From assembly GCA_963733055.1 (NCBI GenBank), contig CAVTBR010000001.1:288001-352000 (forward strand): 64,000 bases of DNA, given 5' to 3'. Within the stretch, counting starts at the first letter, position 1. Each line of letters begins with the position of its first letter. This DNA comes from Candidatus Bathyarchaeota archaeon (GTDB lineage: Archaea > Thermoproteota > Bathyarchaeia > 40CM-2-53-6). The position numbers were made by a program, and so were the translations under genes. The notes below the pieces were generated by a model. That model saw only the letters and a program-made list of their open reading frames with translations, had not been told where the DNA came from and made no database searches. This document shows positions 2,246-36,132 of the stretch, in pieces.

Positions 2246-2666
2246 TTCTTGAGTTCTTAACCCCGCTTATCACAAAGCATGACTCTCTACAACCGAAGAG
2301 AGAGTAACGCCTACCCGCGATGAAATTGTAGGCTCTCTCCGCCAATGAGGTGCTGAACAGTCTACAGACGAGTTTGAAGGGGGCAAGGAAGTTGCAGATT
2401 TCTGTGATTGCAGCCGGCCCGCTCATTAGTGAACCGTCGTCTCGGATCAGATGCATTCGCCCTTGAAGTTGTTGATCATTCAACCCATACTTTTGCCTCA
2501 TCCGAGAGCCAAGTTCTTGGAAGGGCTCGTACTGGATAGTTTTGTTGCGGTCAATTAGGTTGAGGAACCGAACCGCGCCAGTGCAAAGGTTGCAGATGCC
2601 ATCGTAGACCAATTGCGGCTTTTGAACCAATTTGAAGCTGCCAACCTTGACGTCTTTGAGACTCAA
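2232..2666 (-). CDS. DCC1-like/DUF393 thiol-disulfide oxidoreductase
   Basis: YDGICNLC motif, C-terminal YxFIAxRRY-FG. Confidence 0.85.
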   Translation of the reverse strand: MSLKDVKVGSFKLVQKPQLVYDGICNLCTGAVRFLNLIDRNKTIQYEPFQELGSRMRQKYGLNDQQLQGRMHLIRDDGSLMSGPAAITEICNFLAPFKLVCRLFSTSLAERAYNFIAGRRYSLFGCRESCFVISGVKNSRIRVH

Positions 2667-2827
2667 TGACTCTTGTTTATGCTCGCGTAGAGCAAGTCAC
2701 CCACGTTCATGGGCGGAGGGGTGTAGAGATGAACAAACTTGCATTCATCGCAGTAGCTTCTTTGACATTCCACACAGAAACCTATTGGCCGTCTTCCACT
2801 TCCACAGGAACAGGTTTGCATACTCAT
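2663..2827 (-). CDS. 54-aa B-box-like zinc-finger microprotein (not in the ORF track)
   Basis: Manual translation MSMQTCSCGSGRRPIGFCVECQRSYCDECKFVHLY...; its TGA overlaps the TTG start of the DCC gene (TTGA). Confidence 0.65.
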   Translation of the reverse strand: MSMQTCSCGSGRRPIGFCVECQRSYCDECKFVHLYTPPPMNVGDLLYASINKSH

Positions 2828-3074
2828 GAGAACTCGACCCTCTCGCCACGAACTCTAGTCATCGACGCTGTGAGTCGAGGCGATGAATTATCCTTTGCCC
2901 TCATCGCGCTCAGTAAAATGTGCAGAACCACAAGAATCAGTTGCCGATTTTCAATTGCTAAGTTCGTTTTGCGATATTCGAACGCTTAATCGACCCCAAG
3001 ATTTGATGAGAGCATGAGGCAGGTGGCTTTTTGTCACTACAATTATATACGGTCCCTTGCCTCGTTTCAACTTC

Positions 3075-4556: not shown

Positions 4557-4577
4557 ACTAGACCAGGTGAGACAGCC

Positions 4578-4967
4578 ATGCCAAAACGATATCGTCTCGT
4601 CTACGCCGGAATACGGGTGAGGGATCTAAAGAAATCAACCGACTTTTACAGAAGGATCATGGGAATGCGAGTCACGAGGCGAGGAACGATGCCCCACGGA
4701 GGCAAGTATGTAGCTCTAAGAAGCCCCGGATCCTCACAAGAACTCGAGTTGAACTGGTACCCGTCTCGAAGCAAATTCTATTCCAAATACCGGAGAGGCG
4801 ACGAGTTAGATCACCTGGCGTTCGGCGTGGGCAACGTGAAAGCAGCGCTAGCCAAACTTGTTTCCAAAGGAGTCGAGGTGGCCGTCTCACTCTCTGAGGC
4901 CAAAGGAGTCACGGAGGTCTACGTGAAAGACCCCGACGGAATCTGGATAGAACTTCTAAACTGGTAA
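4578..4967 (+). CDS. VOC/glyoxalase family protein
   Basis: GIRVRDL..FY, LELNWY, LDHLAF, DPDGIWIEL; GGTGA Shine-Dalgarno. Confidence 0.9.
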   Translation: MPKRYRLVYAGIRVRDLKKSTDFYRRIMGMRVTRRGTMPHGGKYVALRSPGSSQELELNWYPSRSKFYSKYRRGDELDHLAFGVGNVKAALAKLVSKGVEVAVSLSEAKGVTEVYVKDPDGIWIELLNW

Positions 4968-4995
4968 CGCGCTAGCACCTTCGAAGGGAATCGAT

Positions 4996-5568
4996 CTGAG
5001 CGACGCTCTGAGAAGATGCGGCTGGGCGCGGAATGACCCTCTGCTTAGAGTATACCATGACGAAGAGTGGGGCGTTCCTGTGCACGACGACCTCAAACTG
5101 TTCGAGTTTCTCATACTCGAAGGGGCGCAGGCTGGGCTTAGTTGGCTAACCGTACTGAAGAAACGAGACGCCTTCCGATCCGCCTTCGACGGATTCGACC
5201 CAAAGAAGGTTGCCAATTATTCGAACTCCGACATCAGGCAGCTGCTAACCAACCCCGCAATAATCCGTAATCGTCTCAAAATATCAGCGGCGATAACAAA
5301 CGCCCGGCAACTCCTAAGCGTACAGGACGAATTTGGAACCTTCGACAATTACGTTTGGAGGTTTGTCGGTGGCAGGCGGATTGAACATCGGTTCAGGTCG
5401 ATGTCAGCCATTCCCGCGAAGACCAGGGAATCTGACGCCATGAGCCGCGACATGATTAGGCGAGGGTTCAAGTTCGTTGGCTCAACTATTTGCTACGCCT
5501 TCATGCAAGCCGTAGGAATGACAAACGACCACACGATAAACTGTTTCAGATACAAGCAGCTGAAATAA
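4996..5568 (+). CDS. tag: DNA-3-methyladenine glycosylase I
   Basis: RCGW...YHDEEWGVP lies in frame upstream of the track start 5080; LEGAQAGLSW, GFKFVG, NDH..C; likely CTG start at 4996. Confidence 0.92.
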   Translation: MSDALRRCGWARNDPLLRVYHDEEWGVPVHDDLKLFEFLILEGAQAGLSWLTVLKKRDAFRSAFDGFDPKKVANYSNSDIRQLLTNPAIIRNRLKISAAITNARQLLSVQDEFGTFDNYVWRFVGGRRIEHRFRSMSAIPAKTRESDAMSRDMIRRGFKFVGSTICYAFMQAVGMTNDHTINCFRYKQLK

Positions 5569-5666
5569 TCTGCGAACTGCGTTAACGCGAAATCCGCGTC
5601 GAAGATACTCTTTTCAAGACATAGATTGGTTCCTAAGTCGTCAGTGCAGATCCTAATCAGAGTTTT

Positions 5667-5984
5667 TCAAATGAAGTGCGCGACGAGGCCTAGAATGCCA
5701 CCGATCAGGACGAGAAGTCCGCCGATTCCGCCCCCGACGAAGCCGACTATGATCAAGACGATCGCCCAGATCAATTCGGTCACCCGCTTAGATCCTACGA
5801 CGGCCACAATTCCCAGGATTATTGTGATGATACCGCCGAGGCCGAAACCTTCCACGGGTGAGTGAAATGGGATAGATACAGCGTATCCGACGAGGGATAG
5901 GAGCCCAAAGATAATCATGAGAATTCCGCCGATGATGGCGAGAATATACCCGAAATAGCCTATACTTCCTTTCCCGTGCTTCAT
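5667..5984 (-). CDS. Small Gly-rich multi-pass membrane protein
   Basis: Hydrophobic helices, LIGGIL motifs, TTATAAA box upstream. Confidence 0.7.
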   Translation of the reverse strand: MKHGKGSIGYFGYILAIIGGILMIIFGLLSLVGYAVSIPFHSPVEGFGLGGIITIILGIVAVVGSKRVTELIWAIVLIIVGFVGGGIGGLLVLIGGILGLVAHFI

Positions 5985-6131
5985 TATTCTTCAAGCTATA
6001 ACCCGCGGACTTTGCTTTTATAACTTTGTAGAAACAGAACCCCGGGAAGGATTAGGGTAGTCTAAGTTGAATACAAACCCGCGGTATGCGGAACCGAGTA
6101 CACCGAGAACATGAAAGGGTCAGGTTGAAAG

Positions 6132-6626
6132 TTGCCTGTAACGCAACTGCTGAACATCCTCGTGCTTTGGGTTCATCTGTTCAGCGCGGTTCTATTCGTT
6201 GGAGGTTCATTCTTCATGTGGTTAGTCATCGTCCCTGCCTCACATCTCATAACCACCGACGAATCGGAGAGGACGCGAATCGTTGGGAAGCTGGCCAAAG
6301 CCTTCGGTAACCTGACCAACCCCATCCTAATTGTCTTAGTGCTCACCGGGTTGTACAACGCAACATGGTACCTACAATCCGCAAATGCCCTCTTCGAATA
6401 CCCAGGCACGCTCCTACTGACGAAAGCAATCCTCGTAGCAGGTCTGCTGCTACTCATCTATGCCAATAACCTATACTTCGGAAAGAAAATCATCCGACTA
6501 GCCAAAGACGCAAAATTGAACGAACTCAAGGCGCTGCGTCAAACGAGCAGGATCGTTTCGGCAGCAAACCTGACACTAATGCTTCTGATCCTACTCCTCT
6601 CAACGATGATGCAAATGCCTCCCTGA
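6132..6626 (+). CDS. CopD-like membrane protein
   Basis: WVHLFSAVLFVGG, LVLTGLYN, four TM helices. Confidence 0.7.
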   Translation: MPVTQLLNILVLWVHLFSAVLFVGGSFFMWLVIVPASHLITTDESERTRIVGKLAKAFGNLTNPILIVLVLTGLYNATWYLQSANALFEYPGTLLLTKAILVAGLLLLIYANNLYFGKKIIRLAKDAKLNELKALRQTSRIVSAANLTLMLLILLLSTMMQMPP

Positions 6627-6672
6627 AATCGGATCTGCAGCCGCAATTCGAACAACGAGTCACCAATTGTGC

Positions 6673-8106
6673 TCAACTTTTTGGTACTCCGAATCCGATG
6701 CCCATCCAGCTGGTGTCGGGGGTTCGTGTGGCGTAGATGGCTAATGCAAGCGCCCAGAGCTCATCATCGTGAGTTCCATCCGGATGGCTGAATTGGGTTT
6801 GGCCGATTTTGGTGAGTTCGTAGTGTTCCACGTTGATTTGGGCGATTAGGTCTTGGTCTAGGTAGAGGCCGACACTTTCGGTTTCCATCATGTTCTTCAT
6901 GTAACCAAGGATCTCTTGCTTGGACGGGACCGTGAGCATAACGCCCTCGATTATGCTCTTGATGTGCACGTTCTTCATTTCCTCGGTAATGTATTCGCCC
7001 ACACCGGTTCGGTCTACTAGCACTTTCTCGACGCGTTGGAGTTTGTCGCAGATCACCTTCACGTAGCCAATTACGGTGGCGTATGGTGTCTCGAGGGGAA
7101 AGCGAACTACGCTCACGAGCTCTGCCGCCTCCTCTTTCGTGTTCCACTGAACCACCGCTATGACTGAGTTGTCAACTTTCTTGCCGAAGTCGACGCCAAC
7201 AAAGTATCGTCCCGCCGGGGCGATTACGTGCTTTGTCCAGTCGTCGGTGATTGGGGCGAGATCGCTGGCGATACATTGGGCGATTAGTTTCTGTGTGAAG
7301 TAGACGAGCTCGTCCTCAACGAACTCGGCTAGGTATTCTCGGCGGAACCTCTCGCTGGGGGTTCGTTGCTTCATCTCGTCGACGAACTTCTGCGTCGTGA
7401 GGCCGGTGTCCACGACTTCTTTGATTTTGACCCATTGTTTGCTGAACGCTTTTTCTTGGGTGAACTTGTAGAAGACCGAATCCTTGCCCCATGGCGTGCT
7501 GCTTGCGATCAGAGTCCCATCAGTTGTCTGCAGCATGGGGAAGAGGACACTGTAGAAGACGAGTTCGTCTTCACGAAAGAACGCTGCTTCGTCGGTGAGC
7601 ACGTTGCTGGCAGTATAACCTCTCAGGAGGTTGGGGTTGTTGGGTAACGCAACAATCTGCGACCCTTCCCGGAACCAGATAACGGTCCGCTGCATCTTCG
7701 CAACGATCAGGCGGCGCAGCGGTTTGTTAATTGAGAGAAGGAAACGGTGGATCCTATCCATCACGATCATGGATTGGCGGCGGCCCGGGGCCACGATGAG
7801 GCTGGTGGTGCCGGGGTGGGTGGCTGCGTACCAGATCATGCGGACTGCGAGTGTGGTTGTTTTCCCGGATTGCCTGGGCCATACCACCACGATGCGTTTG
7901 CTCGGGTCCTCAAGAAGCGCAACCTGGTAGGGGGTTGGGTTGAAGCTGAGAATATCCTGGGCGAACTTAACGATCTCTTTCCCGTAGTAGTCTCGAGTCT
8001 TCGAATCCCAGATTATGGTTTTCTCAGGCCTCGATGCGTCGCCGCCTGGCGCGTTTTCAGCTTCCAGCTGTTCCGCTGCTTTTTCCAGTTGTTTTTTCAA
8101 GTTCAT
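6673..8106 (-). CDS. Terminase large subunit (ATPase + RNase H-fold nuclease)
   Basis: PTPYQ, Walker A PRQSGKTT, Walker B LTDEAAF, SSTP, nuclease GVDFG / VDRTGVG / HDDEL. Confidence 0.92.
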   Translation of the reverse strand: MNLKKQLEKAAEQLEAENAPGGDASRPEKTIIWDSKTRDYYGKEIVKFAQDILSFNPTPYQVALLEDPSKRIVVVWPRQSGKTTTLAVRMIWYAATHPGTTSLIVAPGRRQSMIVMDRIHRFLLSINKPLRRLIVAKMQRTVIWFREGSQIVALPNNPNLLRGYTASNVLTDEAAFFREDELVFYSVLFPMLQTTDGTLIASSTPWGKDSVFYKFTQEKAFSKQWVKIKEVVDTGLTTQKFVDEMKQRTPSERFRREYLAEFVEDELVYFTQKLIAQCIASDLAPITDDWTKHVIAPAGRYFVGVDFGKKVDNSVIAVVQWNTKEEAAELVSVVRFPLETPYATVIGYVKVICDKLQRVEKVLVDRTGVGEYITEEMKNVHIKSIIEGVMLTVPSKQEILGYMKNMMETESVGLYLDQDLIAQINVEHYELTKIGQTQFSHPDGTHDDELWALALAIYATRTPDTSWMGIGFGVPKS

Positions 8107-8596
8107 GTAGGCCCGCCTTCACACGTTCCAGCAGCGGCGCAACGGCCGCCTGATCTTGGTACTTGAGGATCTCGAGGTGGACGTTAGCTGTAGCAGCCAT
8201 AACTTCCATCACGTGAATTCTCGCTTTCGCATTCTTCGCGGCCTCCTCAGTCTTCATGAAGTCGGCAGCGTCCTGGATTGCTTTCCAAATGAGGGCTTCA
8301 AGGTCGTCTCGACGCTTGTCACTAGGAAGCCCACTGGCGATTGGGATGCCTAACGGTAGGCCCATGCTTAACGCTAGGTCAGTGTACTCTTTGACGTGGT
8401 GGCTGAACTGCAATGCGGCTCCGCCGAACTGCATCGCAGTTCGTTCCCTAGTCTTCGCTTGCAGATGTCCCCTGATGACTTCCTCACGTAGGTATTCGGA
8501 TGGAGTCATGTGTTTTTCAAGCGCAAGCAGGCGGATAGCTTCAAGGTACATGGGTTGAAGCCTGAAGACGACGTTTTGGCCGATCTTAGGATTCAT
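8057..8596 (-). CDS. Putative terminase small subunit / RHH-type DNA-binding protein
   Basis: Overlaps the terL start by 50 nt; N-terminal VVFRL..IRLLA..MTPSEYLRE is RHH-like; remainder helical. Confidence 0.5.
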   Translation of the reverse strand: MNPKIGQNVVFRLQPMYLEAIRLLALEKHMTPSEYLREEVIRGHLQAKTRERTAMQFGGAALQFSHHVKEYTDLALSMGLPLGIPIASGLPSDKRRDDLEALIWKAIQDAADFMKTEEAAKNAKARIHVMEVMAATANVHLEILKYQDQAAVAPLLERVKAGLHELEKTTGKSSGTAGS

Positions 8597-8683
8597 TCAC
8601 AAACATCCCGTTCCTGAACAACCATGTAGCCCACAAGGCATTTAACTAAAATCGTATATTATGATGCCTTAGGTATACTATTA

Positions 8684-9175
8684 TTGTTAACCGAGAAAAT
8701 GCGTCGCCACGTAGAAACGAACTGGAAACGTGTGCCAAAGGAACAATTGAAGACCTACCGGAGCCGTCTACGCTACCAAGCGGTCGCAGCGTTGCTAGAC
8801 CTAGCGCTGGTAGCAGAGAGAGAGCCTGAAGAGCAGCTGCAACAGATATTCACCCCAGACACCGTCGGAATATTGATTCAGGCCTTGACAGGACACGGGT
8901 GCGAAGCAATCCACGCCCGACACCATGAAATCGCCCGCGTAATGCTCAACGCAGCATACAAACGCCTCCAAATCCTCATCGACACCGATTACCGACCCAT
9001 GGTTGTAGAGCCTCTTAACAGGGGTGTGGCTCTCCTAACAATGATCCCCGCCCCGAAAGAACCCCGACAAATGCCACCCGCCACAGTCAACGATCAACGC
9101 GAGAAAACGCAACACCAACGAAGGCGGATTATGCACGATCATCTGGGTCGCCAGCTCCTGGAGGAACACGAGTAG
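8684..9175 (+). CDS. Hypothetical protein (proviral)
   Basis: 163-aa ORF divergent from the terminase pair. Confidence 0.55.
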   Translation: MLTEKMRRHVETNWKRVPKEQLKTYRSRLRYQAVAALLDLALVAEREPEEQLQQIFTPDTVGILIQALTGHGCEAIHARHHEIARVMLNAAYKRLQILIDTDYRPMVVEPLNRGVALLTMIPAPKEPRQMPPATVNDQREKTQHQRRRIMHDHLGRQLLEEHE

Positions 9176-12327: not shown

Positions 12328-12834
12328 TTATCCAGACTGTTTCCATCTTTGGGTTGCTATTCGTATGATGAGGTCTCTGCAAGTGACTAGGTCACTCCAT
12401 GCTTCCTCATCAGAGACCCAGAGCTGTACTGGCTCGAGCATTCTGGTTGAATGGGCTTGTTCGTAGTACGCTCGGTCTATGCGCTGTGCGAGGTGGGCTC
12501 CAAGGTTTCCATGCTCTCTTGCAGCATCGATTCGTTTTGCGAAATCCTCATCGATCAGGTGGTTCGTCTTTGCCCACTCGAAATTTTCCTGCCACACAGT
12601 ATTCTTTACGAGCTCGTGTGAAGCTGAGCGATCGGTGATCGTTGGCGTAGTTTTCGCTGTATGAAGTAGCGTCTCCATGGACGCTCTAGTGCATAAGCAG
12701 CAGGCGAGATTGGCGTGAGCATAGAAGCACCGGACCGCCTCCCCGAAGAGGTCTGCAGCTTTCGATAGTACGAACCACTTATCGACCACGTTCTTGTTCG
12801 TGGTCAGGGAAAACCAGAGTTCACTGTAAGCCAA
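12328..12834 (-). CDS. DUF4145/HEPN-like protein
   Basis: EAVRCF, RASMETLL, REHGNLGAH. Confidence 0.7.
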   Translation of the reverse strand: MAYSELWFSLTTNKNVVDKWFVLSKAADLFGEAVRCFYAHANLACCLCTRASMETLLHTAKTTPTITDRSASHELVKNTVWQENFEWAKTNHLIDEDFAKRIDAAREHGNLGAHLAQRIDRAYYEQAHSTRMLEPVQLWVSDEEAWSDLVTCRDLIIRIATQRWKQSG

Positions 12835-17976: not shown

Positions 17977-19200
17977 CTATTTTGATGATTTGAGATACTC
18001 AAGCGCGTCGCTTATTGCATCCAATTCTTTCTCACGCAAACCGCCGTATTCGAATATGGCTCTCACGGACGAGATCGAATACTTTTCCAATGCGAACTTC
18101 CACAACACGCTCAACATCAAATCAGCAAGAAGTTTGCTGAAGATTAAGTCATGGTGGCCGATCAACTCCAACTTACCTTCATGAACCATGGAATTACGTT
18201 TGAGCAATGTCACGTCTACTTCGGATTCAAAGGCTGGAGATTTGTTCACGAAATATTTGCGAACTCTGTCTTTGAGGACCTTCTCTGGAGTTATCTGCCT
18301 CAAGGTAGCAATAGTCTCAACTACGATCCAATACTTCAGAAAAGCAAAGGCAGCATCGGTTTCAGTCACAGCAGAGCTGTACACATCGAGAGATTCAAGT
18401 AACAGACTCGCAAGGTTGCTATCCTCGAGTGGATAATACATCTCATCGAGAACTTTCTTGAATCTTGCCACATCAAGCAGCTTTGTTCCTGTCAGGTAGG
18501 GATCTGGAATATCAACAACTGTCCAATCGATCAAGCCTTTCTTTTCGAATGCGAATATACTTCTTGAAGGTCTGAAATTCGTTAGAGGTGTGTTGGACAA
18601 TGGATGGATTGTTCCTCCGACGCATTCATAGTTCACGAGTGCAAAGAATCTACTTACGAGATTAGACAACTCTCGAAACGCAAAGGAGGCATCTCGAGCC
18701 TGAATCTTAGAGCTAACCCAGACCAAATTCGCCAAAGAAGGAACGTAACCTGATGCCAACTGAAAATACTCTTTGATCCGATCCTCTGCGATGGTCGACA
18801 GGTCTGAATGTGTCTCAAAGTCCAGCTTTTGCGCACGGACATCGCAGGTCGGGCCGAATTGCTTCACGAAATCAGCCGGTAGCGGAGTCGGGGAGATTAC
18901 GATCAGCTCTTTCATGGGTAATGAGTGCAGGCTCGCGAGTTCGTTCTCTATCTCTCTGACTAGTGATGGAATCGAGTCAACGCCGTTTCCTTTGAATTTG
19001 CTGATTGCTTTTTCCACGACGGCAAGAGTCTGGTTGCTTCTCAATTGCCAAACTCGCTTGCGAACGTTGTTGCCGTCGGACAATTGTAGACTGGCAGCTA
19101 TGATCTCACAGCAGTGCTGAATTTCATGTATCCGATTTGGTCGGCCCAAGAATTTCAGAGAGTGATTTGCTAGTGCAAGGAACGAATCATCTGACTGCAT
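17977..19200 (-). CDS. Apea-like HEPN domain protein
   Basis: SLDVYSSA, FLKYWIVVE, KRNSMVHEG. Confidence 0.75.
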   Translation of the reverse strand: MQSDDSFLALANHSLKFLGRPNRIHEIQHCCEIIAASLQLSDGNNVRKRVWQLRSNQTLAVVEKAISKFKGNGVDSIPSLVREIENELASLHSLPMKELIVISPTPLPADFVKQFGPTCDVRAQKLDFETHSDLSTIAEDRIKEYFQLASGYVPSLANLVWVSSKIQARDASFAFRELSNLVSRFFALVNYECVGGTIHPLSNTPLTNFRPSRSIFAFEKKGLIDWTVVDIPDPYLTGTKLLDVARFKKVLDEMYYPLEDSNLASLLLESLDVYSSAVTETDAAFAFLKYWIVVETIATLRQITPEKVLKDRVRKYFVNKSPAFESEVDVTLLKRNSMVHEGKLELIGHHDLIFSKLLADLMLSVLWKFALEKYSISSVRAIFEYGGLREKELDAISDALEYLKSSK

Positions 19201-19298: not shown

Positions 19299-19398
19299 GT
19301 ATTGACAAGGAATCGAGGGTAGATTCTGTTGAGTAATCTAACTTCTGTGATTTTTCAATACGCAAAACAGGTGCGGCGGTAACGAAATGCGTATATAA
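19299..19398 (+). promoter_or_regulatory. 63-bp imperfect inverted repeat followed by BRE/TATA promoter of the HTH operon
   Basis: GTATTGA/TCAATAC, AATC/GATT and TAGATT/AATCTA arms; CGAAA then GTATATAA at 19391-19398. Confidence 0.55.
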
Positions 19399-19432
19399 AG
19401 TGCTATTGCGTTATAGAGTAGAGCTGAATTGT

Positions 19433-19789
19433 ATGGCTGACGAAAACGAAGAACTCGGACTGCTGAGGGAAATCAACGAGAATTTGAAAGTGATTAGAAA
19501 GCTCACTGAGATACAGCTTCACGGACCAATCAAGGACGAACTGACAAAGTTCGCCTCGTCAGCAGAGCGGAGAAAGCTTTGGATGCTGTGTGACGGAACT
19601 ACTACCACCATAGAGATGTCGAGAAGAATCGGCGTTAGTCCGAGAGCCGTTCAGTATTTCGTCCAGGATGGACTGAAAGCCGGTTTCCTCAGAGTCGACA
19701 GACGGGGTTATCCAAGTCGAGCAATAGACTGGACTCCGCCAGAGTGGGAACGAGCTCAAGGCGAAACAAGGGAGAGCAGAAATGAGTGA
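19433..19789 (+). CDS. Helix + winged-HTH protein 1
   Basis: LLREINENLKVIRKL helix; LCDG.TTIEMSRRIGVSPRAVQ. Confidence 0.75.
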   Translation: MADENEELGLLREINENLKVIRKLTEIQLHGPIKDELTKFASSAERRKLWMLCDGTTTTIEMSRRIGVSPRAVQYFVQDGLKAGFLRVDRRGYPSRAIDWTPPEWERAQGETRESRNE

Positions 19790-20087
19790 GTCAGAATTCA
19801 AGCACTTGACAAAGCAGAATGACACGATCATTACACTGCTGGGACATTTGGCGTTCAAAGCGCAAGATATCAAGGACATTGTGACTAAGAAGAAGCAGAA
19901 CCCCGACAACTATGTCAAAGGATACAATGCCTGTGACGGACAACATACAGTATCTCAGATTGCTCAGATAGTGGATGTCAAATCTGGCACGCTCACGCCC
20001 ATTCTCCAGGAGTGGGAAGAATTGGGGATTATTCGTGAAATCGAAAAGCCTGGAGGCAGGTTCTACAAGAAGCTGTTTCCTATTTAG
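19782..20087 (+). CDS. Helix + winged-HTH protein 2
   Basis: ACDG.HTVSQIAQIV..GTLTPILQEWEELGII; 8-nt overlap with the previous gene. Confidence 0.8.
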   Translation: MSESEFKHLTKQNDTIITLLGHLAFKAQDIKDIVTKKKQNPDNYVKGYNACDGQHTVSQIAQIVDVKSGTLTPILQEWEELGIIREIEKPGGRFYKKLFPI

Positions 20088-20095
20088 GTGAAAAC

Positions 20096-20332
20096 ATGGA
20101 CGAAAAACAGTTCACAGAACTCATGGGCAGGCTCGGTGTCCTAAGTAAACTCCTCGCTTGGAATATTCTCCAAGGCAAGGAAAGTCTAACTCAGCGGGCT
20201 CTGGCACTCTCCTCAGCCGGTTTGGAAAGGAAGGAGATTGCATGGTTACTGGGTCAAGATCCAGATCTGATTAGTCAGACACTATACCAGGCCAAGCAGG
20301 CAAAGGGAAGCAAGAAGGAGAGAGTCAAATGA
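20096..20332 (+). CDS. Helix + HTH protein 3
   Basis: AGGTGA SD; LSSAGLERKEIAWLLG..LISQTL. Confidence 0.75.
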   Translation: MDEKQFTELMGRLGVLSKLLAWNILQGKESLTQRALALSSAGLERKEIAWLLGQDPDLISQTLYQAKQAKGSKKERVK

Positions 20333-20598
20333 GCGATCAAGAACAATTCGCCAGACTGATTGAGCTGATTGAGGCGATCCTGAGAACGAGAATCACGGAG
20401 CTGTTGGACAAGGAGCTAGATGATCCCAAGAAGAAGAAACTATACGAACTTACTGGCAGAAAGAAAATAGTCGAGCTTAGCAAACTCACTGATCTCTCAA
20501 CAGGAACTATCTCGGGCCTCTGGCAGAGATGGTATTCGATGGGCATCCTGAAGAAACAAGGCAAGCTCTACGTCAAGTTCTTCGAGGAGGAGATCTAA
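20329..20598 (+). CDS. Helix + winged-HTH protein 4
   Basis: ATGA overlap; LYELTG..IVELSK..LSTGTISGLWQRW..GIL. Confidence 0.75.
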   Translation: MSDQEQFARLIELIEAILRTRITELLDKELDDPKKKKLYELTGRKKIVELSKLTDLSTGTISGLWQRWYSMGILKKQGKLYVKFFEEEI

Positions 20599-20685
20599 GA
20601 CGACTGAAGAACCGCTGAGAAGAACTACAAGGAATAGAGAGACGTGCGTCTCTTAGTGTCTCCGGCAGAAGAAGAGGTGATATCG

Positions 20686-20850
20686 ATGCCAAAGAAGCCA
20701 AAAACAGTTGAAGAGCACCTCGAAATCATGGAGAATCTGCTCGCTGGTGTTATTCTAAAGCGTGAACCGAACGTGAAAAAGCTAGCCAAGATTATGGGTG
20801 TCTCCAGTGACAAGCTTACTGAATTGTATCCTACTTCCAGGAAGAAGTGA
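20686..20850 (+). CDS. Helix + HTH microprotein 5
   Basis: GAGGTGA SD; LEIMENLL, VKKLAKIMGVSSDKL. Confidence 0.65.
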   Translation: MPKKPKTVEEHLEIMENLLAGVILKREPNVKKLAKIMGVSSDKLTELYPTSRKK

Positions 20851-20875
20851 GAGAAAACCGAAGAGTGATTGACGG

Positions 20876-21577
20876 ATGTTGGATCGTGCTTCACTCATCA
20901 GCAATTTGAGAGCGTTCTGTGCTGGATCGCCCAAGAAAATAGCAATTTTGAAAGCCGTCCGAAAGCGAACATATTACAAGGAAGTTGCGAAAAATGTTCA
21001 CGCTAGAGAGGACTACTGTTCTAGCGTTCTTAATGGCTTACGGGCAAATGAGTTAGTCGAAGGAAAACGCGGTTTCTATCAGCAGACACCGTTGATGAAA
21101 ACCATCAACATAGATTCTGAGTTAAAGAAGCAAAGTGGAAGAGTACGAGTCGCACAAACAAAGCAAACTCCTACAGAGAAAATTAGAGTACTTGACCTAG
21201 AAAAGGCGCTTGATCAGCTAGACGTCGACTCGGTAATCAAGAGTGACTGCTTTCCTCTGCGAAAACCCTACAGAACTCATGTAGGGGAAGCGTATCTAAC
21301 TGTAGAGAATTTCATCAAACAAGAGTTGCGATTGCCCGATTCCCTCGTGGGTACAGATCTCGTTTCCGAGGCTGTCAAGAAGGGACTCTTCGATAGGTCG
21401 GTCAATTCTGAGAAAGAAGGTCTAGCTCTTCTCTTCAGAGGAGCCGTGCTTTGGCTTAGAAACCCAGCTCATCATAGGAAGGGAGACATGCCTAGAGAGG
21501 ATGCCCTTAAGATGATACTGTTTGCAGACTACCTGTTGAAGTTAGTTAGAAGGCAAAAAGAACTGAACAAACTCTAA
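20876..21577 (+). CDS. wHTH + TIGR02391 (Ymh-like) domain protein
   Basis: N-terminal HTH; EAYLTVE, GTDLV, SEKEGLALLFRG, LRNPAHH. Confidence 0.8.
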   Translation: MLDRASLISNLRAFCAGSPKKIAILKAVRKRTYYKEVAKNVHAREDYCSSVLNGLRANELVEGKRGFYQQTPLMKTINIDSELKKQSGRVRVAQTKQTPTEKIRVLDLEKALDQLDVDSVIKSDCFPLRKPYRTHVGEAYLTVENFIKQELRLPDSLVGTDLVSEAVKKGLFDRSVNSEKEGLALLFRGAVLWLRNPAHHRKGDMPREDALKMILFADYLLKLVRRQKELNKL

Positions 21578-21715: not shown

Positions 21716-24238
21716 TTGGACGTTCAGGAGTGCCTAGAAGCCATCGTAGAGAGCATACGTAAGAAGAAGATGTCTATCTGGGTTGGAGCTGGAATATCTC
21801 TACCGTCTCTTCCTTTGGGAAATGAATTGAAGTTTTGCATACTTGAGGAAGTATGCGCCCATCCCTCACTTCGGAAATATGGAGATCGATTGCAACGAGG
21901 GCAGGACATAGCGAGAGATGTGGAGAAGCTTCCGCTCGAATGGATAATTCAAATCACATCCACCCTGGATTCGTCGATCCTTGCTTGCGTCGCCAACGTG
22001 TTTAGGGGCGGCTCTTCGAACAAGAATCATTTCCTGATAGCTCAGCTAATTGCGCAAGGTTTTGTCTCGCAGGTCATGACAACAAACTTTGACCTCCTGA
22101 TCGATAGAGTTCTCGAGAACGAGCTAGGATTACGAAGAGGATCCACTTTCAACCTACTGTATCGTGAGTCTGAATTTGAAAATATCAAAGCGATCAAAAA
22201 CCGACCCACCCTCTACAAGATTCATGGCAGTGCAGATGACGAATCTAGCATAAGAGTCACTTTGAACAATGTGGCGAGCAGGGGACTTTCGGACCGCAGA
22301 GCCGAAGCCTTGGAACACTTTCTCAGCTCGGGAGACATTCTTGTTCTTGGCTACAGCGTGCGAGATGACTTTGACATCAATCCGATTCTGTCGAAAATAC
22401 CATCGAAAGGGCGTATTTTCTACGTTAGACACGTAAGGGAAGGATTCAGCATAAGGAAGCTGCCAAAAGCATTCTCTAGGTTTCCAGGAACAACTATTCA
22501 TTTTGACACGGCTAAGCTGATTGACTATCTGTCGAAGTCAATTCTAGACCAAGATCCGAAGCAACTCTCGGTGAAGATGGGATTAGAATCTGGGAACTGG
22601 AGGAAAACGATCGAGGCATGGGCGGAAAGGCTCCAATTGTCTAAGAGATGCCTTATCATGGGATCGATTCTTCTTGAGATACGGCGGAATGATTCATATG
22701 AATTATTCAGAAGGGCGAGCAAAGCATGTGTCGTCGATCATAACCTTCCCGGATTAGCGACCGCCCTCTATAGTATGGGCATGATAGAGCAAGAAAGAGG
22801 CAGGTACAACAAAGCGCTGACATTTTTCGATCAGACGCTGCGGCTTGACCGTAGACTCAACGATCAACATGGGATAGCGGTTACCTTACGTTTGATGGGG
22901 AAAATCCAACTAGACGTCGGCAATTTTGCCAAGGCTGCAAGGCTATTCCTTCGAGGTGCAAATATTCTTTACGAGCTTGGGGATTTGTATGAATTTGCCA
23001 CTGCTGTCCAGGACTTGGCTGTTTTGGAGATGGACAATGAAAATTATCCTCGAGCGACAGCGTTCTTCGGTCAGGCAAAGGAAACCTTCGAGAAGTTAGG
23101 CAACGTGTCAGGAGCAGCGGGAGTGTCGCAAAATTTGGCGATAATTGAGGAGCGAAAAGGAAACCTGAAGGAGGCTTCAAGACTATGTCGAAAAGCCTTA
23201 GAGACCGCATCAAGCCTCTCAGATGAACCTGAAATCGGCGCTGCACTTCATCATCTCGGCACTATTGAGCAGAGTCTAGGAAATTATGCGACGGCCAAAC
23301 GATTCTTCGATCGGGCTTTGAAGATTCGACTAAGCCTGAAAGACTTGGCAGGATTGGCAAGTACAACCAGTGAACTGGCCAAACTCGAAGTCCTGTTAGG
23401 ACATTATGGTAGAGGTCGAATTCTGTACAACAGAGCGAAGAAGTTCTTCTGCAAGCTGGATCACTCATATGGAATCGCCAATTGCCTTCAAGAGCTGGCA
23501 ATAGTAGATGTGTACGAGGGGAAATATCAGAGGGCCGTCCAGTTGACGAATGAGAGCCTTGAGATTAGGAGGCAGGGTCCAAACCAATCAGCTGTCGCAG
23601 CATTGCTGGACCAATTGGGATCAATTGAGTTGCTGCAACGGAAATACGTTGAGGCGAAGACACATTGCAAAAAGGCGCTGCAAATATTTCGCAAACTGGA
23701 CGATCAAGCTGGAATTGCAGGAGCTCTTCATGACCTCGCCAGTGTCTACGAAGAGAGTGGTGACCTCCCTAGAGCCATAGCGATGTATAATCACAGCCTG
23801 AAAATTAAGCGGAGAATCAAAGATCGTCATGGAATGGCCAAAACTTTTCATCAGCTAGGTTTAATCGAGTATCGCAGAAAACACTACGACAGGGCCAGGA
23901 AATATTGTGACGATAGTCTACGAATCAAACGGAAGTTAGGCGACAAACACGGAATCGGTGCGACGCTGCTTCAGCTTGGTGCAGTCGAACATGCGAACAA
24001 CAATCTTGTTCAAGCAGAGCAGTTCTATACTGAGGCTCTGGCGCTTTTCCGCGCCATCGGAAGCCAAACAGCCGAATCTTCCGTTCTAACAAATCTTGGA
24101 ATACTCGAAGTGACTAATCAGAATTACGATGCGGCAGGGGAATTTTTCAAAGAAGCTCTGACAATAGAACGCAAGCCGGGCAATCGCCATAATGCTGAAC
24201 AGCTGCTTATGACACTACAGGGTCTCTCTAGACTCTAA
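21716..24238 (+). CDS. SIR2-like (SIR2_2) domain + TPR repeat protein
   Basis: WVGAGIS, TTNFD, KIHGS, LGYS.RDDFDI followed by many ~40-aa TPRs. Confidence 0.9.
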   Translation: MDVQECLEAIVESIRKKKMSIWVGAGISLPSLPLGNELKFCILEEVCAHPSLRKYGDRLQRGQDIARDVEKLPLEWIIQITSTLDSSILACVANVFRGGSSNKNHFLIAQLIAQGFVSQVMTTNFDLLIDRVLENELGLRRGSTFNLLYRESEFENIKAIKNRPTLYKIHGSADDESSIRVTLNNVASRGLSDRRAEALEHFLSSGDILVLGYSVRDDFDINPILSKIPSKGRIFYVRHVREGFSIRKLPKAFSRFPGTTIHFDTAKLIDYLSKSILDQDPKQLSVKMGLESGNWRKTIEAWAERLQLSKRCLIMGSILLEIRRNDSYELFRRASKACVVDHNLPGLATALYSMGMIEQERGRYNKALTFFDQTLRLDRRLNDQHGIAVTLRLMGKIQLDVGNFAKAARLFLRGANILYELGDLYEFATAVQDLAVLEMDNENYPRATAFFGQAKETFEKLGNVSGAAGVSQNLAIIEERKGNLKEASRLCRKALETASSLSDEPEIGAALHHLGTIEQSLGNYATAKRFFDRALKIRLSLKDLAGLASTTSELAKLEVLLGHYGRGRILYNRAKKFFCKLDHSYGIANCLQELAIVDVYEGKYQRAVQLTNESLEIRRQGPNQSAVAALLDQLGSIELLQRKYVEAKTHCKKALQIFRKLDDQAGIAGALHDLASVYEESGDLPRAIAMYNHSLKIKRRIKDRHGMAKTFHQLGLIEYRRKHYDRARKYCDDSLRIKRKLGDKHGIGATLLQLGAVEHANNNLVQAEQFYTEALALFRAIGSQTAESSVLTNLGILEVTNQNYDAAGEFFKEALTIERKPGNRHNAEQLLMTLQGLSRL

Positions 24239-24250
24239 AGGGACGAAAAT

Positions 24251-27184
24251 TTGATGGAGTCTGTGTTGTTACTTGCAGGCTTGTTGCTCGCCAGATTACT
24301 TCTCGAGAAGCTTCCAGAAAGCGTTGCATCTGATGCAATTATAGATTCGGGGAAGGCGCTTGCCCATCGAATAGGTAGAAAGAATCTTGAAGAGCTCATT
24401 GTGGAATCGATCAAAGAAGCCGCTGAACAGTCTGCAAGAGAGTACGGCGATATCAGACAAGATATTTTCAAGAGTGCGTTGAAAGCGCTTGAGTGTCCTT
24501 CTGCAAAAGAGATTATCCGGAGAAGAAGCGATGCACTGCTTCGAGCAAAATTCACCTCCGAGGAATTCAAGCAGCTCTCTCAAGAGTTAGCAGCCACGAT
24601 CTATGTCAAGTCAGGTATTTCCAAAGAAGACATTGAACGCGTTCTGAGAGAATCTCTACGTTTGTTTCATGACCACTTACTTGCGAAGATCGCTGAAGAC
24701 CAGAGGCTTACGAATTTTCTTGGGCTTAAGTTAGGAATTCAAAATGCTCTTGCACTAGAGTCCCTCACGAGTGCTTTTAGAGCCTCCAGGAAAGATACTC
24801 AAAGTGCATTTCAACCGTTCACTATTCTACCGTTATCGGATTTGCGGAAACTGGACACGGTTCTCCATTATAACCCACCCCAATCAAGATTGCATGGATA
24901 CGTGCCGAGGGAAGAGATTGACTTCGATCCATCTGGAAGAAGGATCATTATTCTAGGAACTCCAGGATCGGGCAAGACAACCGCTCTGCTGAAAATCCTT
25001 GAAAGAGCAAAAAGCGGAACCATAGCGGTAATACACAGATCCTTTTCCGCCGATGATATCCTCGGACTACTCAACGCTATCTCGATTGGTGAGTCAATTA
25101 TTCTTGTTTGGGACGACCTGCATTGGGTCGGCGAACCGTCTCTCGTTCCGACAACTATTTGTAAGATCCTGGAAGTCACTTCTAACCCTACCTTAATACT
25201 GGCTGCAAGATCAAACGAATTCGAGTCATTACGTCGAAAGGTATCGGAACACTTCTGGTCTATGTTTGAAAAACATCAGCTCGTGGACCTCGACACCGAT
25301 CAGACAAGGAGGCTAGTAGACATTTGCAAACAGGAATTCGATGTGACGATGGATGAGGAACTTGAGAAACAGCTAATCTCCGTAGTCAAAGAAGCCGATC
25401 CTACTCCTCTCTATATTGTGTCGGCTATTCTAGCCTTGAAAGGGAAATCGCTTGAAGCGACCGACATCCACAGAATTCCTGCAAGCGCTAGGGACATTTG
25501 GGCAGGATTATTCTCCTCACTCGATTCCGACAACAAGAATGTCTTGAGGTCTCTGAAATTACTTGACGAAGCACAGCTTCCTCCTTTGCATTGGCTTGCC
25601 TCAGCAATATACGAATGCGTCTTTCGTGGAGACGAAACGAAATTCCAATCAGCCTTGGACCAACTTAGTAGCATGGGATGGGTTCGATCTCTTGGCTCAC
25701 GTATTCAGTGTCATGACCTCCAACTCGAAGCGGTTCAGATCGACGATCTTTCCTACGACAATTTGCGTTTTCTCTCATCTAGTCTCAACCTAACCCCTGA
25801 AGGCAAATTCACTGTTCTTCATCACTTTGGCATAGTGCTTGACCGAAGAGGTAGGTATAACGACGCAAGAGCGCTGCTCGAAGAAAGCCTTGCAATTGAA
25901 CGTGATGTTGGGAACAATTTGTCAGAGGCTTTAACGTTGCACCAATTGGGAAAGATCGAACAGGCGATAGGCAACTACGACGTCGCCCAGAAACTCTATG
26001 AACAAAGTCTCGAGATCAAACGGAAACTAAGAAATGAAGCTAGCATACCTTCAACGTTGCATCAGCTTGGCGTTTTAGCCTATCTTAAGGGCGACTATGA
26101 TGCTGCCAAGCGATTGTACGGGGAGGCAGAGAGTGCCTTTCGCAAGTTTGATGATCAATCCGGATTAGCTGGGGTACTGCATCAACTTGCACTCATAGAA
26201 AAGGAGAGGGGAAACCTTGATGAATCAGCAAAACTCGCCGAACAAAGTTTGAGGATTAGTCAAACACTAGGAGATCAAGAAGCAGTGCCTCAAGATGTGG
26301 TGCTTCTTGCTCAACTAGAAGATTCCAGAGGTAATCGTGATACAGCGAAGCGACTGTACGCAGAAGCTGAAAACGCTTTTCGAGAACTAGGCGATCAAGT
26401 GGGGCTAGCAATCGTGTTACACCAACTCAGTATGATGCTTCAAGACGAAGGCAACTTGGATGAATCTCTTAGATTGTGTAATGAGAGCTTGAGAATTGAG
26501 CAAAAGATCGGGCATCCATTAGGAATAGCTGGAAGCTTGAATCAGTTAGGTAGAATTCAATTTCAAAAAGGCAACTATGATGAGGCCCAGAGATTCTATG
26601 AGGCCAGCTTGGAAATTACTGGTAAACTTGGAAATCAATCGGAAAGCGCTCAGACACTGCATTCCCTGGGCGTAATCGAATACATGAGGGGCAACTACGA
26701 TAAAGCCACGAAACTGTACAATCAGGCCCTTGAAGTCTACGGTTTACTTGGGATGAAAGCAGAGATTGCCTCAGTTCTGTATCAGTTTGGCAACATGGCA
26801 GTGTCAAAGGAAAATTACGATGACGCAAAGACGCTTTATGAACAATGCCTAGAAATCGATCGGGAGGTTGAGAACCCATTAGGCATAGCGAGAACTTTAG
26901 TGGCACTGGGTAGAGTGGATGCTCTGAAGGATAACTTTGAGAATGCAAGGAAACTTTTCAATGAAAGCCTGGCGATTGCTCGCAAGCTTGGAAACATATC
27001 AGAGGAAGCGACGGCGAATGCTCAACTCGGTAGCCTTGCGGAGGCGGAGGGTGATGTGAAAAGTGCTGTCAAGCTGTGGTCACAAGCATTACAAATTTTC
27101 GAGCAGATAGGCGAGAGAGAAAAAGCGGACAATCTAAGGCCCGAGCTCAAGCGTCTAATGGACAGGTTACGACTTGGACAGTAA
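24251..27184 (+). CDS. STAND-like P-loop NTPase + TPR repeat protein
   Basis: Helical N-terminus, Walker A GTPGSGKT, Walker B LVWDD, TPLY (GxP-like), HD motif, then TPRs. Confidence 0.85.
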   Translation: MMESVLLLAGLLLARLLLEKLPESVASDAIIDSGKALAHRIGRKNLEELIVESIKEAAEQSAREYGDIRQDIFKSALKALECPSAKEIIRRRSDALLRAKFTSEEFKQLSQELAATIYVKSGISKEDIERVLRESLRLFHDHLLAKIAEDQRLTNFLGLKLGIQNALALESLTSAFRASRKDTQSAFQPFTILPLSDLRKLDTVLHYNPPQSRLHGYVPREEIDFDPSGRRIIILGTPGSGKTTALLKILERAKSGTIAVIHRSFSADDILGLLNAISIGESIILVWDDLHWVGEPSLVPTTICKILEVTSNPTLILAARSNEFESLRRKVSEHFWSMFEKHQLVDLDTDQTRRLVDICKQEFDVTMDEELEKQLISVVKEADPTPLYIVSAILALKGKSLEATDIHRIPASARDIWAGLFSSLDSDNKNVLRSLKLLDEAQLPPLHWLASAIYECVFRGDETKFQSALDQLSSMGWVRSLGSRIQCHDLQLEAVQIDDLSYDNLRFLSSSLNLTPEGKFTVLHHFGIVLDRRGRYNDARALLEESLAIERDVGNNLSEALTLHQLGKIEQAIGNYDVAQKLYEQSLEIKRKLRNEASIPSTLHQLGVLAYLKGDYDAAKRLYGEAESAFRKFDDQSGLAGVLHQLALIEKERGNLDESAKLAEQSLRISQTLGDQEAVPQDVVLLAQLEDSRGNRDTAKRLYAEAENAFRELGDQVGLAIVLHQLSMMLQDEGNLDESLRLCNESLRIEQKIGHPLGIAGSLNQLGRIQFQKGNYDEAQRFYEASLEITGKLGNQSESAQTLHSLGVIEYMRGNYDKATKLYNQALEVYGLLGMKAEIASVLYQFGNMAVSKENYDDAKTLYEQCLEIDREVENPLGIARTLVALGRVDALKDNFENARKLFNESLAIARKLGNISEEATANAQLGSLAEAEGDVKSAVKLWSQALQIFEQIGEREKADNLRPELKRLMDRLRLGQ

Positions 27185-34635: not shown

Positions 34636-36132
34636 GTGCTGTCAAGCGCATCCGTGCCATGCCAAGTTAACGTGACAAAATCCAGCAGCAAACTTGGAAT
34701 AACAATTCCGCATTTCTCCCAAAGCAATCCTGCAAGGCAGGTTGTCCGGCTCACGGTGGCAAACGAAGCAACCCAAGCAAGCTTCCTCGCCCTAGCCGCA
34801 CCATGGGTCACAATCCCCACAAGCATCTGCACAAAACTGAACATCTCCTACGATCAGACAATCTCGATTCTCGAGATCAGACCAGTCCAACCGCACACTC
34901 GTCCCCCCTTCAAAACCGAGGGGGACAAGGTAGACATGCTCTCACTGATTCCGCCAACTTCCACCAACGGCTATCAATTGTACGTTGACGGATACGAGGA
35001 CAACGGAGAGCCGTGGCTTAGAATCTGGTACCACCATCCAAGAGGAGCCGCACGCCAAATAGAATTGAAGCGGTATGCTAATGCTGCAAGCCTTGGTGGT
35101 TTACTGGGACTACTTCAGGCCGAGGGCGAGAAGAAGTACGCCAGAGTTGTATTCAAGAATTCGGCCATCGCGGAACATGCTTATCTTGTCTCAGGGCTGG
35201 CGGAATTAGGTGTGCCTTTAGCGCTCATTCGCGGACGCTGCATTTTCAATCCGAGTAGGTCATCACTAGCAACTGCTTATGAATATGCTGAGCGATACAG
35301 AAACGCAACTAGGGTTACAATCGGACATTTCAGTGCGATTGACTCCATGAAGGGAGCTATTGCCGCGGATACTCTCGTGAGATCGAGTGTACTGGCAGCG
35401 GTACTCCTTTTCTCTATGAGCGAAGTTCGTCGAGGGGCATTCTGGAATAATTCACTTCGTCGCAATTTCCTTGCTAAGTTGCTTACTGGTGACGGATCGC
35501 TTGATGCAAGAAGAAGACCGCAGAGACTTGATGTCCGATTGACGATAGTCGACCGAGACATAGATGCTCTCCAAGATTATGCTGAGCTCCTCTCGCAAGA
35601 AGGCTTCAAGGCAAGTGTATATTCGGATCGAATCACCGTTCGCGCATATTGCACGTGGTTAAATCTTGTAAGACTCTATGAAATTGGTGCTTTCAGGAAT
35701 GGGAGAAACTGGATCAAATTACTATGCGCGATAAAGATCACAATCCTGGGAAGGGAGAATCGTGGATACAAGAGAATTCAAGAGCTATCGAGGTTGGACT
35801 CAATTACAAGCGACGATATCTCGGGAAAGTATGGGATTGGAAGACGCTCGGCAAACCTGTGGATAGGTACAATGCTTCGCAAAGAAATGTTAGAAAGACT
35901 GCTGACAAACCGAAACGACGGACGAAAGGAGTACGTAGTGGCTGCGAAGGGAAAGGCGCTAGCCGGAATCATCGAAGCGATCCAACGCGATTACGATGAG
36001 GTCAGCAAACAGAAAGGAACTGATGATCCCCACGTTATTCTTCAAGAAATGAAGTACAAAGGAAAACCTGGGCAGACAAAACAATTGCTCGCGAAGCCAG
36101 TTATTCGGGCGTCTTCCGCTGAAACGGCTTAA
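34636..36132 (+). CDS. Free-standing double-LAGLIDADG protein with C-terminal wHTH
   Basis: LLGLLQAEG and FLAKLLTGDG motifs; C-terminal ITSDDISGKYGIGRRSANLWI HTH; start uncertain. Confidence 0.75.
   Translation: MLSSASVPCQVNVTKSSSKLGITIPHFSQSNPARQVVRLTVANEATQASFLALAAPWVTIPTSICTKLNISYDQTISILEIRPVQPHTRPPFKTEGDKVDMLSLIPPTSTNGYQLYVDGYEDNGEPWLRIWYHHPRGAARQIELKRYANAASLGGLLGLLQAEGEKKYARVVFKNSAIAEHAYLVSGLAELGVPLALIRGRCIFNPSRSSLATAYEYAERYRNATRVTIGHFSAIDSMKGAIAADTLVRSSVLAAVLLFSMSEVRRGAFWNNSLRRNFLAKLLTGDGSLDARRRPQRLDVRLTIVDRDIDALQDYAELLSQEGFKASVYSDRITVRAYCTWLNLVRLYEIGAFRNGRNWIKLLCAIKITILGRENRGYKRIQELSRLDSITSDDISGKYGIGRRSANLWIGTMLRKEMLERLLTNRNDGRKEYVVAAKGKALAGIIEAIQRDYDEVSKQKGTDDPHVILQEMKYKGKPGQTKQLLAKPVIRASSAETA

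Follow-up and report, generated by a model that had tools for sequence, protein, structure and literature searches.

A Ymh-type HEPN gene behind an array of small helix-turn-helix genes: a predicted variant of a recurrent archaeal cassette

What use could an archaeon have for a row of five small helix-turn-helix (HTH) proteins encoded directly ahead of one putative ribonuclease (RNase)? The question is raised by a six-gene locus of Candidatus Bathyarchaeota archaeon (GenBank assembly GCA_963733055.1; Thermoproteota, Bathyarchaeia), which lies in a window of 64,000 nucleotides (nt), positions 288,001 to 352,000 of contig CAVTBR010000001.1. Five small genes, g1 to g5, are followed on the same strand by g6, whose product is predicted to join a winged helix to a HEPN domain. 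A preliminary description, made from the DNA sequence alone, took the small proteins for diverged paralogs that co-assemble through N-terminal helices and control the sixth protein. By comparative sequence analysis we identify the locus as the Ymh-effector variant of a recurrent archaeal cassette, in which an array of small HTH genes abuts an interchangeable and, by prediction, mostly nuclease-type protein of 200-312 amino acids (aa).

The HEPN gene and its constant partner

The candidate effector domain lies in g6. Residues 129-223 match the Pfam family PF09509 (Hypoth_Ymh) at E=3.8e-13, scoring 49.8 bits against a gathering cut-off of 25, and a precomputed PF09509 label is present on all full-length g6 homologs. 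Ymh is a HEPN family with a conserved catalytic motif, according to the accessible part of Anantharaman et al. 2013 (PMC3710099). The Rx4H motif of g6 falls within the string LRNPAHH, and W193, R195, N196, H199 and H200 are invariant in 19/19 aligned g6 homologs. A collection of 5.8 billion proteins contains 35 other relatives of g6, which are 44-81% identical and, except for the shortest fragments, of the same length.

AlphaFold models g6 with a mean predicted local distance difference test score (pLDDT) of 79.7, reaching ~90 over residues 1-80. In the model, residues 1-85 form a confidently predicted winged helix, residues 88-106 are a basic, disordered linker, and a helical domain makes up the C-terminal part. 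In the whole-protein fold, the C-terminal part comprises four helices over residues 136-230, with Rx4H directly after helix 177-194. Foldseek places the N-terminus among ArsR, SmtB, NolR and MarR winged helices (prob 1.0, E ~0.02, none at or below 0.001). On this evidence, g6 is predicted to join a winged helix to a HEPN domain of the Ymh family in which Rx4H is intact. The preliminary description had recognised such a fusion with its LRNPAHH motif, and this part stands. Its assignment of the domain to TIGR02391 does not, because g6 falls below the cut-off of that model, and we file the domain under the Pfam family alone. Other Ymh proteins in related genomes (L002, L003) have different N-termini and no small-HTH array, so the array is not a general property of Ymh genes.

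We sorted the small genes into types: A, represented by g5; C, by g3; W, by g1, g2 and g4 (~90-130 aa, winged HTH); and B, a small HTH of ~55 aa that is absent from the window and present in relatives' loci. A metagenome scan with the g6 alignment returned 13 loci, nine with sequence upstream of g6 and four that begin inside it. In 9/9 loci with upstream sequence a g5 homolog directly precedes g6, with -4 to 27 nt between the two. The genes also co-vary: across 36 non-independent pairs, g5 identity and g6 identity correlate at r=0.92. Adjacent, co-directional and co-inherited, this small gene and the putative toxin gene have the layout of a type II toxin-antitoxin pair.

What accompanies the pair varies from locus to locus. 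L005 has g2', g1, g2, g3, a B gene and a 310-aa gene ahead of g5-g6; the array of L004 and of L006 holds a single B gene, that of L010 B, C, B and that of L011 B, C, while L013 shows a C gene and then the contig end. g5 alone accompanies g6 in L007, and a W gene and a g2 homolog lie downstream of g6 in L008 and L009. Since g5 is constant and g1-g4 are present, absent or reordered, we take g5-g6 as the core and the remainder as a shuffled, exchangeable set. A conserved order of all six genes, as the preliminary description would have it, is not what relatives show: only g5 is always linked to g6, and g1-g4 may be absent, reordered or downstream.

Three of these loci show further arrangements. 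In L008 (282-982) and L009 (1-671) the same frameshift breaks the g6 homolog into open reading frames (ORFs) of 57 aa and 162 aa. The W gene and g2 homolog follow, and the copy may be decaying or rearranged. In L007, two C-type genes and then a 169-aa ORF lie on the opposite strand just downstream of the g5-g6 pair (2461-3573, minus strand). The N-terminus of that ORF resembles, by eye, Swt1-type HEPN proteins; two cassettes stand there side by side.

The six genes are real and tightly packed. As first described, the five small ones encode 54-118 aa and include two overlaps, of 8 nt between g1 and g2 and of 4 nt (ATGA) between g3 and g4; the remaining gaps of the locus are 8, 87 and 25 nt, and GGTGA stands 5-6 nt ahead of the ATG of g3 and of g5. 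Against their relatives in L005, pN/pS (nonsynonymous to synonymous) is 0.14 for g1, 0.20 for g2 and 0.46 for g3, all three with saturated synonymous sites; g5 and g6 give dN/dS values of 0.14 and 0.095. This comparison indicates purifying selection on g1, g2, g3, g5 and g6. g4, of which L005 has no copy, has 19 other homologs at 58-85% identity; 2/19 are on contigs of the same sizes (37804 and 14588 nt) as contigs with g5/g6 homologs, which is a proxy for co-location and no proof of it.

Possible control elements lie around and within the array (Table 1). g1 and the divergent 407-aa gene share a 232-nt intergenic gap that contains a TATA-like element. The palindrome between g4 and g5 is not kept in relatives, whose g5 overlaps the preceding gene. 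A sigma-70 promoter and terminator scan found sites no more frequent than in shuffles, and its models are irrelevant for an archaeon.

Small-HTH arrays and their exchangeable putative effectors

Are the five small proteins kin? Blastp among them pairs g2 with g4 (33.5 bits, 24% over 70 aa) and, weakly, g1 with g2 (22 bits), with no other direct pair. Pfam gives sub-threshold HTH matches only for g1-g5 (for g2, HTH_47/MarR). In profile comparisons, hhalign scores A against B at 94.6% over 45 columns, B against C at 85%, W against C at 84.8% over 63 columns that include the N-terminal helix, A against C at 56%, and the W type against the N-terminus of g6 at 69.5%. Hidden Markov models (HMMs) from the window's close relatives recognise small genes of DPANN archaea at E 1e-6 to 1e-27, with cross-matches between A and B and between B and C. 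All five small proteins belong to a loose long-helix-plus-HTH superfamily, whose wider kinship is visible only at profile level. The claim that they are diverged paralogs can therefore be kept in part: they are related HTH proteins, by the A-B and W-C alignments and the HMM cross-matches, and they are not recent paralogs.

The W-type genes carry a shared signature. In a seven-sequence alignment of g1, g2 and g4 with relatives, the Gly of (C)DG/TG, the Gly of G-I/F-L and one wing Gly are invariant, in agreement with the signature originally noted. The g1 homolog in L005 is 80% identical, g2 homologs in L005, L008 and L009 are 73-78% identical, and g2-like genes also occur in the arrays of other genomes (L055, L056). 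g4 weakly matches the C-terminal winged helix of Csa3 (E=5.9e-5).

For g3, an AlphaFold model from a 17-sequence alignment (pLDDT 87.2; helices 3-25, 31-40, 45-52 and 56-76) predicts a 23-residue N-terminal amphipathic helix followed by a three-helix HTH of the sigma-region-4/LuxR-like kind. The best Foldseek matches are ECF sigma region 4, LuxR-type proteins and an archaeal transcription factor, none at E at or below 0.001. Sigma70_r4_2 is matched by 5/17 members of the g3 (C-type) family, and Atlas matches for the small proteins fall in unnamed clusters, in which a minority of members carry Sigma70_r4_2 or HTH_23. Across the 17 sequences, positions 13, 16, 19 and 21 of the C-type N-terminal helix are hydrophobic in 100%, and variation peaks in the recognition helix (2.31 bits vs 1.61 for helix 2). 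The single plan of helix plus HTH that had been proposed for all five proteins is predicted for g3 by the model and probably applies to g1, g2 and g4, by alignment. It probably does not reach g5, where the segment taken for an N-terminal helix would be the first helix of the tri-helical HTH itself.

No paralog of the small genes was found elsewhere in the 2.88-Mb genome (three contigs) at E<0.001 among 36,987 stop-to-stop ORFs, so they belong to the cassette and not to a general regulator family. A genome-wide regulator family was considered and rejected on this ground. Beyond the genome, the C-type profile matches 4754 cluster representatives at E at or below 0.001 and 713 at or below 1e-10. 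These include many stand-alone proteins of 66-110 aa, of which ten examined carried no informative name, and proteins of 250-2900 aa with 4-23 tandem copies of the g3-type HTH. The tandem-HTH proteins are fused counterparts of small-gene arrays. In L023, a 286-aa four-HTH protein (HTH_23; 4916-5776) is encoded immediately upstream of an array.

The arrangement of array and effector recurs far from the window. A search with the g5 subgroup found six loci, labelled Nanoarchaeota, Woesearchaeota, Micrarchaeota, Pacearchaeota, uncultured archaeon and a 'Planctomycetales' metagenome-assembled genome. In 5/6, between 2 and 6 packed A-, B- or C-type small genes are followed by a protein of 239-265 aa; the sixth (L027) has a partial g5-like match and no array. 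By Pfam, the terminal protein is a Swt1-like HEPN protein in L024 (E=4e-8), in L025 (E=6e-8) and, below the cut-off, in L028. That of L026 combines a winged HTH with Schlafen AlbA_2 (E=1.8e-23). In L023 Pfam recognises no domain in the terminal protein, and an AlbA_2 protein comes next after it.

Two samplings blind to the effector gave the same picture. The C-type profile matched 18 of 401 own-phylum genomes at E at or below 1e-5, eight of them full-length with the window's own genome included, and 8 of 401 genomes of a DPANN class at E at or below 1e-8, five of them new. We examined the 12 full-length C-type loci that were new and not the window's own, leaving out ten own-phylum genomes with partial matches, in which the HTH part lies inside ORFs of 131-174 aa. 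At least two adjacent, co-directional small HTH genes are present in 12/12, with eight in L057, and in 12/12 a gene of 200-312 aa on the same strand directly adjoins the array. The recurrence elsewhere that the preliminary description had proposed to check is thus borne out, by g6-related metagenome loci, by DPANN loci and by all the C-type-sampled loci.

The abutting genes encode several kinds of protein. Pfam places Swt1-like HEPN proteins, above its cut-off, in L057, L058 and L061 and an HNH protein in L057. Hypoth_Ymh is borderline in L083 (24.9 bits vs 25, E=2e-5), and L060, L080 and L081 give weak DUF4145 or DUF5677 matches. The L059 protein has a D...EVK motif, seen by eye, as is typical of restriction-fold nucleases, and may be one. 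The terminal-type proteins of L056 and L005 share 42% identity. No homology at profile level links Ymh-type to Swt1-type terminal proteins (hhalign 0.5%), so the effector has been swapped. A single family of Ymh-type and Swt1-type terminal proteins was rejected on the same score. The window has the layout common to this class: at least two co-directional small HTH genes of the superfamily that abut a terminal effector, found in several lineages with different effectors.

The cassette spans sediment and soil archaea as well as DPANN lineages and is patchily distributed. Among 41 relatives, and again among 401 genomes of the class, only the window's own genome yielded full-length g6; a profile search of genome contigs with the g6 alignment, from which the own genome was possibly excluded, found none. 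The g5 family has 80 members in a large protein collection and is present in 3/401 genomes of a DPANN class. Scans of IMG/VR viral contigs found no match to the g6 family, the g5 family or the DPANN g5 subgroup.

Setting and probable function of the cassette

The genome is archaeal by its rRNA operon as well, which matches the SSU and LSU models for archaea. The cassette sits in a low-GC stretch (0.45-0.48 vs 0.50-0.55 in the flanks) within an accessory region of ~21 kb, which begins after housekeeping genes ending at ~6.6 kb and stops before the leucyl- and alanyl-tRNA synthetase (LeuRS, AlaRS) genes from 28.5 kb. A terminase gene and a DUF4145 HEPN gene in this region suggest a decayed provirus or a defence island over ~6.7-28 kb (Table 1). 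The divergent 407-aa protein has R-N-S-M-V-H, an Rx4H string, near its C-terminus and may be another HEPN-like protein. Directly downstream of g6, the SIR2-TPR and STAND-TPR genes look like a separate candidate defence pair. The 407-aa, 128-aa, SIR2-TPR and STAND-TPR neighbours gave no tblastn match in any of the loci searched, so they are not part of the module. The 498-aa ORF next to the synthetase genes may encode a homing endonuclease or derive from an intein.

Table 1. Features of the window; positions count from its first nucleotide
Feature	Position	Strand	Description	Basis
Terminase large subunit	6673-8106	-	Terminase_6N, E=5e-19; ~11 kb upstream of cassette	
DUF4145 HEPN protein	12328-12834	-	same accessory region	
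407-aa protein	17977-19200	-	divergent from g1; no Pfam/NCBIfam family	
Imperfect inverted repeats	19299-19361 and 19353-19399		between g1 and divergent gene	
TATA-box-like element	19392-19399	+	putative promoter, ~34 nt 5' of g1 ATG	sequence inspection
g1	19433-19789	+	118 aa, probable long N-terminal helix + winged HTH (W type)	ORF
g2	19782-20087	+	101 aa, probable helix + winged HTH (W type)	ORF
g3	20096-20332	+	78 aa, predicted N-terminal helix + tri-helical HTH (C type)	ORF
g4	20329-20598	+	89 aa, probable helix + winged HTH (W type)	ORF
16-nt palindrome	20638-20653		in 87-nt g4-g5 gap; possible operator or hairpin	
g5	20686-20850	+	54 aa, predicted minimal tri-helical HTH, basic tail (A type)	ORF
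g6	20876-21577	+	233 aa, predicted winged HTH + linker + Ymh-family HEPN	ORF
Rx4H HEPN motif of g6	21458-21475	+	codons of R195-N-P-A-H-H200	sequence + 19-homolog alignment
SIR2_2 + TPR; STAND-like NTPase + TPR + MIT	21716-27184	+	840 aa (likely start ATG ~21770); 977 aa	
498-aa ORF	34636-36132	+	LAGLIDADG_3 match; adjoins AlaRS/LeuRS genes	

Sister arrays have neighbours of similar kinds. An OLD-family nuclease gene is found beside the arrays of L055 and L024, a CfrBI-type restriction endonuclease gene beside that of L025 and a tyrosine integrase gene beside that of L056. L004 has HerA-NurA and a nucleoside deoxyribosyltransferase as neighbours, and L061 a GmrSD-AlbA_2-EVE protein. In L058, a five-gene small-HTH array and its Swt1-HEPN gene (4154-8311, minus strand) adjoin a Cas1 gene (E=6e-59), and the array is possibly casposon cargo. 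In L080, a four-gene array and a 236-aa HEPN-like protein (1609-8794, minus strand) lie between a DNA methylase and a ResIII-type helicase, all on one strand, as if the array were part of a restriction-modification operon.

Gene context leads us to favour a conflict module, of the toxin-antitoxin, abortive-infection or addiction kind, with g6 as a putative RNase effector and g5 as its putative controller, and we hold this to be probable though far from secure. In this account g6 would act as an RNase, with the HEPN domain as its dimer interface and the winged helix either keeping it on DNA or serving autoregulation. g5, whose translation comes immediately before that of g6, would be the dedicated controller, either a transcriptional repressor in the manner of C proteins or a neutralising antitoxin. 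g1-g4 would supply further exchangeable layers of DNA-binding control or sensing. We favour a conflict module because such systems are usually recognised by just these traits: effectors that are exchanged, a patchy occurrence, and neighbours from defence or mobile elements.

Several points weigh against it. The link to defence is one of guilt by association, and some HEPN families are non-catalytic regulators. With a DNA-binding domain of its own, g6 might need no partner. g6 misses the NCBIfam TIGR02391 cut-off (17.7 bits vs 39.45, over residues 175-228 only), Foldseek with the whole g6 model returns winged-helix matches only and no HEPN structure, and a sequence search of the PDB with the g6 profile gives no match at E at or below 0.001. 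The small proteins g1-g5 resemble no known antitoxin or C-protein family in Pfam, NCBIfam or PADLOC. Several terminal proteins next to arrays have no domain that could be recognised: Pfam finds none in the abutting genes of L055, L056, L059, L082 and L084, and the L005 protein is of the same type as those of L056 and L082. Finally, g1-g4 can be missing from close relatives, which makes a machine of six parts unlikely.

Could the genes instead serve an integrated element? The cassette would then be the regulatory module of a provirus, casposon or plasmid, with small HTH proteins as repressors or excision-type factors and a g6 HEPN domain that senses or binds RNA and does not kill. The terminase gene 11 kb upstream and the low-GC island speak for this, as do the sister arrays that adjoin Cas1, an integrase or a terminase-like ORF, and the accessible part of PMC6563490 describes small HTH proteins as typical of mobile elements in archaea. 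We nevertheless consider it unlikely: the IMG/VR viral contig scans gave no match, no integrase or replication gene is adjacent within the window, and the invariant Rx4H would argue for catalysis. The terminal genes, moreover, mostly encode predicted nucleases of unrelated families, which fits effectors better than regulators.

The assembly proposed at the outset, in which the small proteins and g6 join through N-terminal amphipathic helices into a hetero-oligomeric DNA-binding sensor that switches a HEPN RNase, seems to us very doubtful. Translational coupling through the 4- and 8-nt overlaps, the conserved hydrophobic stripe of the C-type N-terminal helix beside a variable recognition helix, and the fused proteins of 4-23 HTH copies, in which many such domains can work in one molecule, are all in its favour. 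The stripe may, however, pack on the protein's own HTH. Array content and order also differ between close relatives, down to g5 only in L007, which a fixed stoichiometry would not tolerate.

A related scheme of combinatorial DNA recognition strikes us as similarly improbable. HTH paralogs would each read a different sequence through the variable recognition helix, and together would form an exchangeable sensor of many specificities, assembled by the cell or mobile element, that licenses a plug-in nuclease (Ymh-HEPN, Swt1-HEPN, HNH or Schlafen) once foreign DNA is bound. That docking would run through the conserved hydrophobic N-terminal helices, among the paralogs themselves and with the N-terminal domain of the terminal protein, is likewise a slim prospect. 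If true, it would add to archaea a logic of innate immunity that has yet to be described there. A chance cluster of short ORFs, or of unrelated transcription factors without joint function, which the sub-threshold Pfam matches of g1-g5 might suggest, is scarcely credible in view of purifying selection, co-directional overlapping genes, the lack of copies elsewhere in the genome and the same arrangement in other phyla.

Should the conflict module be the right account, it would matter in three ways. Immunity in archaea is poorly charted, and the cassette is a concrete, testable candidate for a defence or addiction module of archaeal type. Ymh HEPN proteins, of which the literature searched shows no experimentally characterised member, would gain their first functional context. 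Lastly, it poses a question of design: why one nuclease needs up to nine small HTH proteins.

Comparison with known systems

For the genes of the window PADLOC names no system, and the literature searched, with supplementary tables outside its coverage, holds no description of small-HTH arrays joined to HEPN or other effectors. The accessible parts of PMC3710099, PMC6563490, PMC12988326 and PMC13056530 do not mention such arrays. The cassette of small-HTH array and effector is apparently undescribed, and the preliminary description was right to know of no named system. The closest known family is Ymh itself (PMC3710099): with its C-terminal domain g6 exceeds the Pfam cut-off, and it keeps Rx4H. 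Ymh domains are reported there as solo proteins or fused to paraMORC, AbiJ-NTD1 or AbiTii, in restriction-modification and Abi contexts; a winged-helix fusion and linkage to small HTH genes are not among the contexts that this part of the paper describes.

HEPN toxin systems, namely HEPN-MNT (type VII toxin-antitoxin; PDC-M05 in PADLOC) and RnlA-RnlB, are alike in that a HEPN protein follows a small partner gene on accessory DNA. Unlike in these systems, the partners in the window are DNA-binding HTH proteins, up to five of them, and the putative toxin carries its own winged helix; Pfam finds no nucleotidyltransferase domain in g1-g5. g2 and g4 weakly match the HTH part of PDC-M05A (E 0.007-0.016). 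A second PADLOC entry, the untested candidate PDC-M34, is approached by sister cassettes, whose Swt1-like HEPN effectors match PDC-M34B at E down to 4e-47. By contrast, g1-g6 are without any PDC-M34 match, and the PDC-M34A models match none of 15 small proteins at E at or below 1, ten of which are neighbours of sister Swt1-type effectors.

The C proteins of restriction-modification systems are Xre-type HTH proteins that occur singly. Like g5, they are small HTH proteins whose gene immediately precedes a nuclease gene on mobile DNA and shares a transcript with it, and they offer a plausible functional analogy for g5. They differ in that the HTH proteins of the window are sigma-region-4/homeodomain-like and come in arrays, and in that the effector is an RNase-type domain.

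The last comparison is with HTH-fused prokaryotic Schlafen proteins, which are reported to defend against phages and make up 8.8% of the prokaryotic Schlafen family in the accessible part of PMC13056530 (Nat Microbiol 2026). The window's effector is a HEPN and not a Schlafen protein, and accompanying small-HTH arrays are not mentioned in that part of the paper. The likeness lies in a sister cassette, L026, which ends in a winged HTH-AlbA_2 protein of the very family described there.

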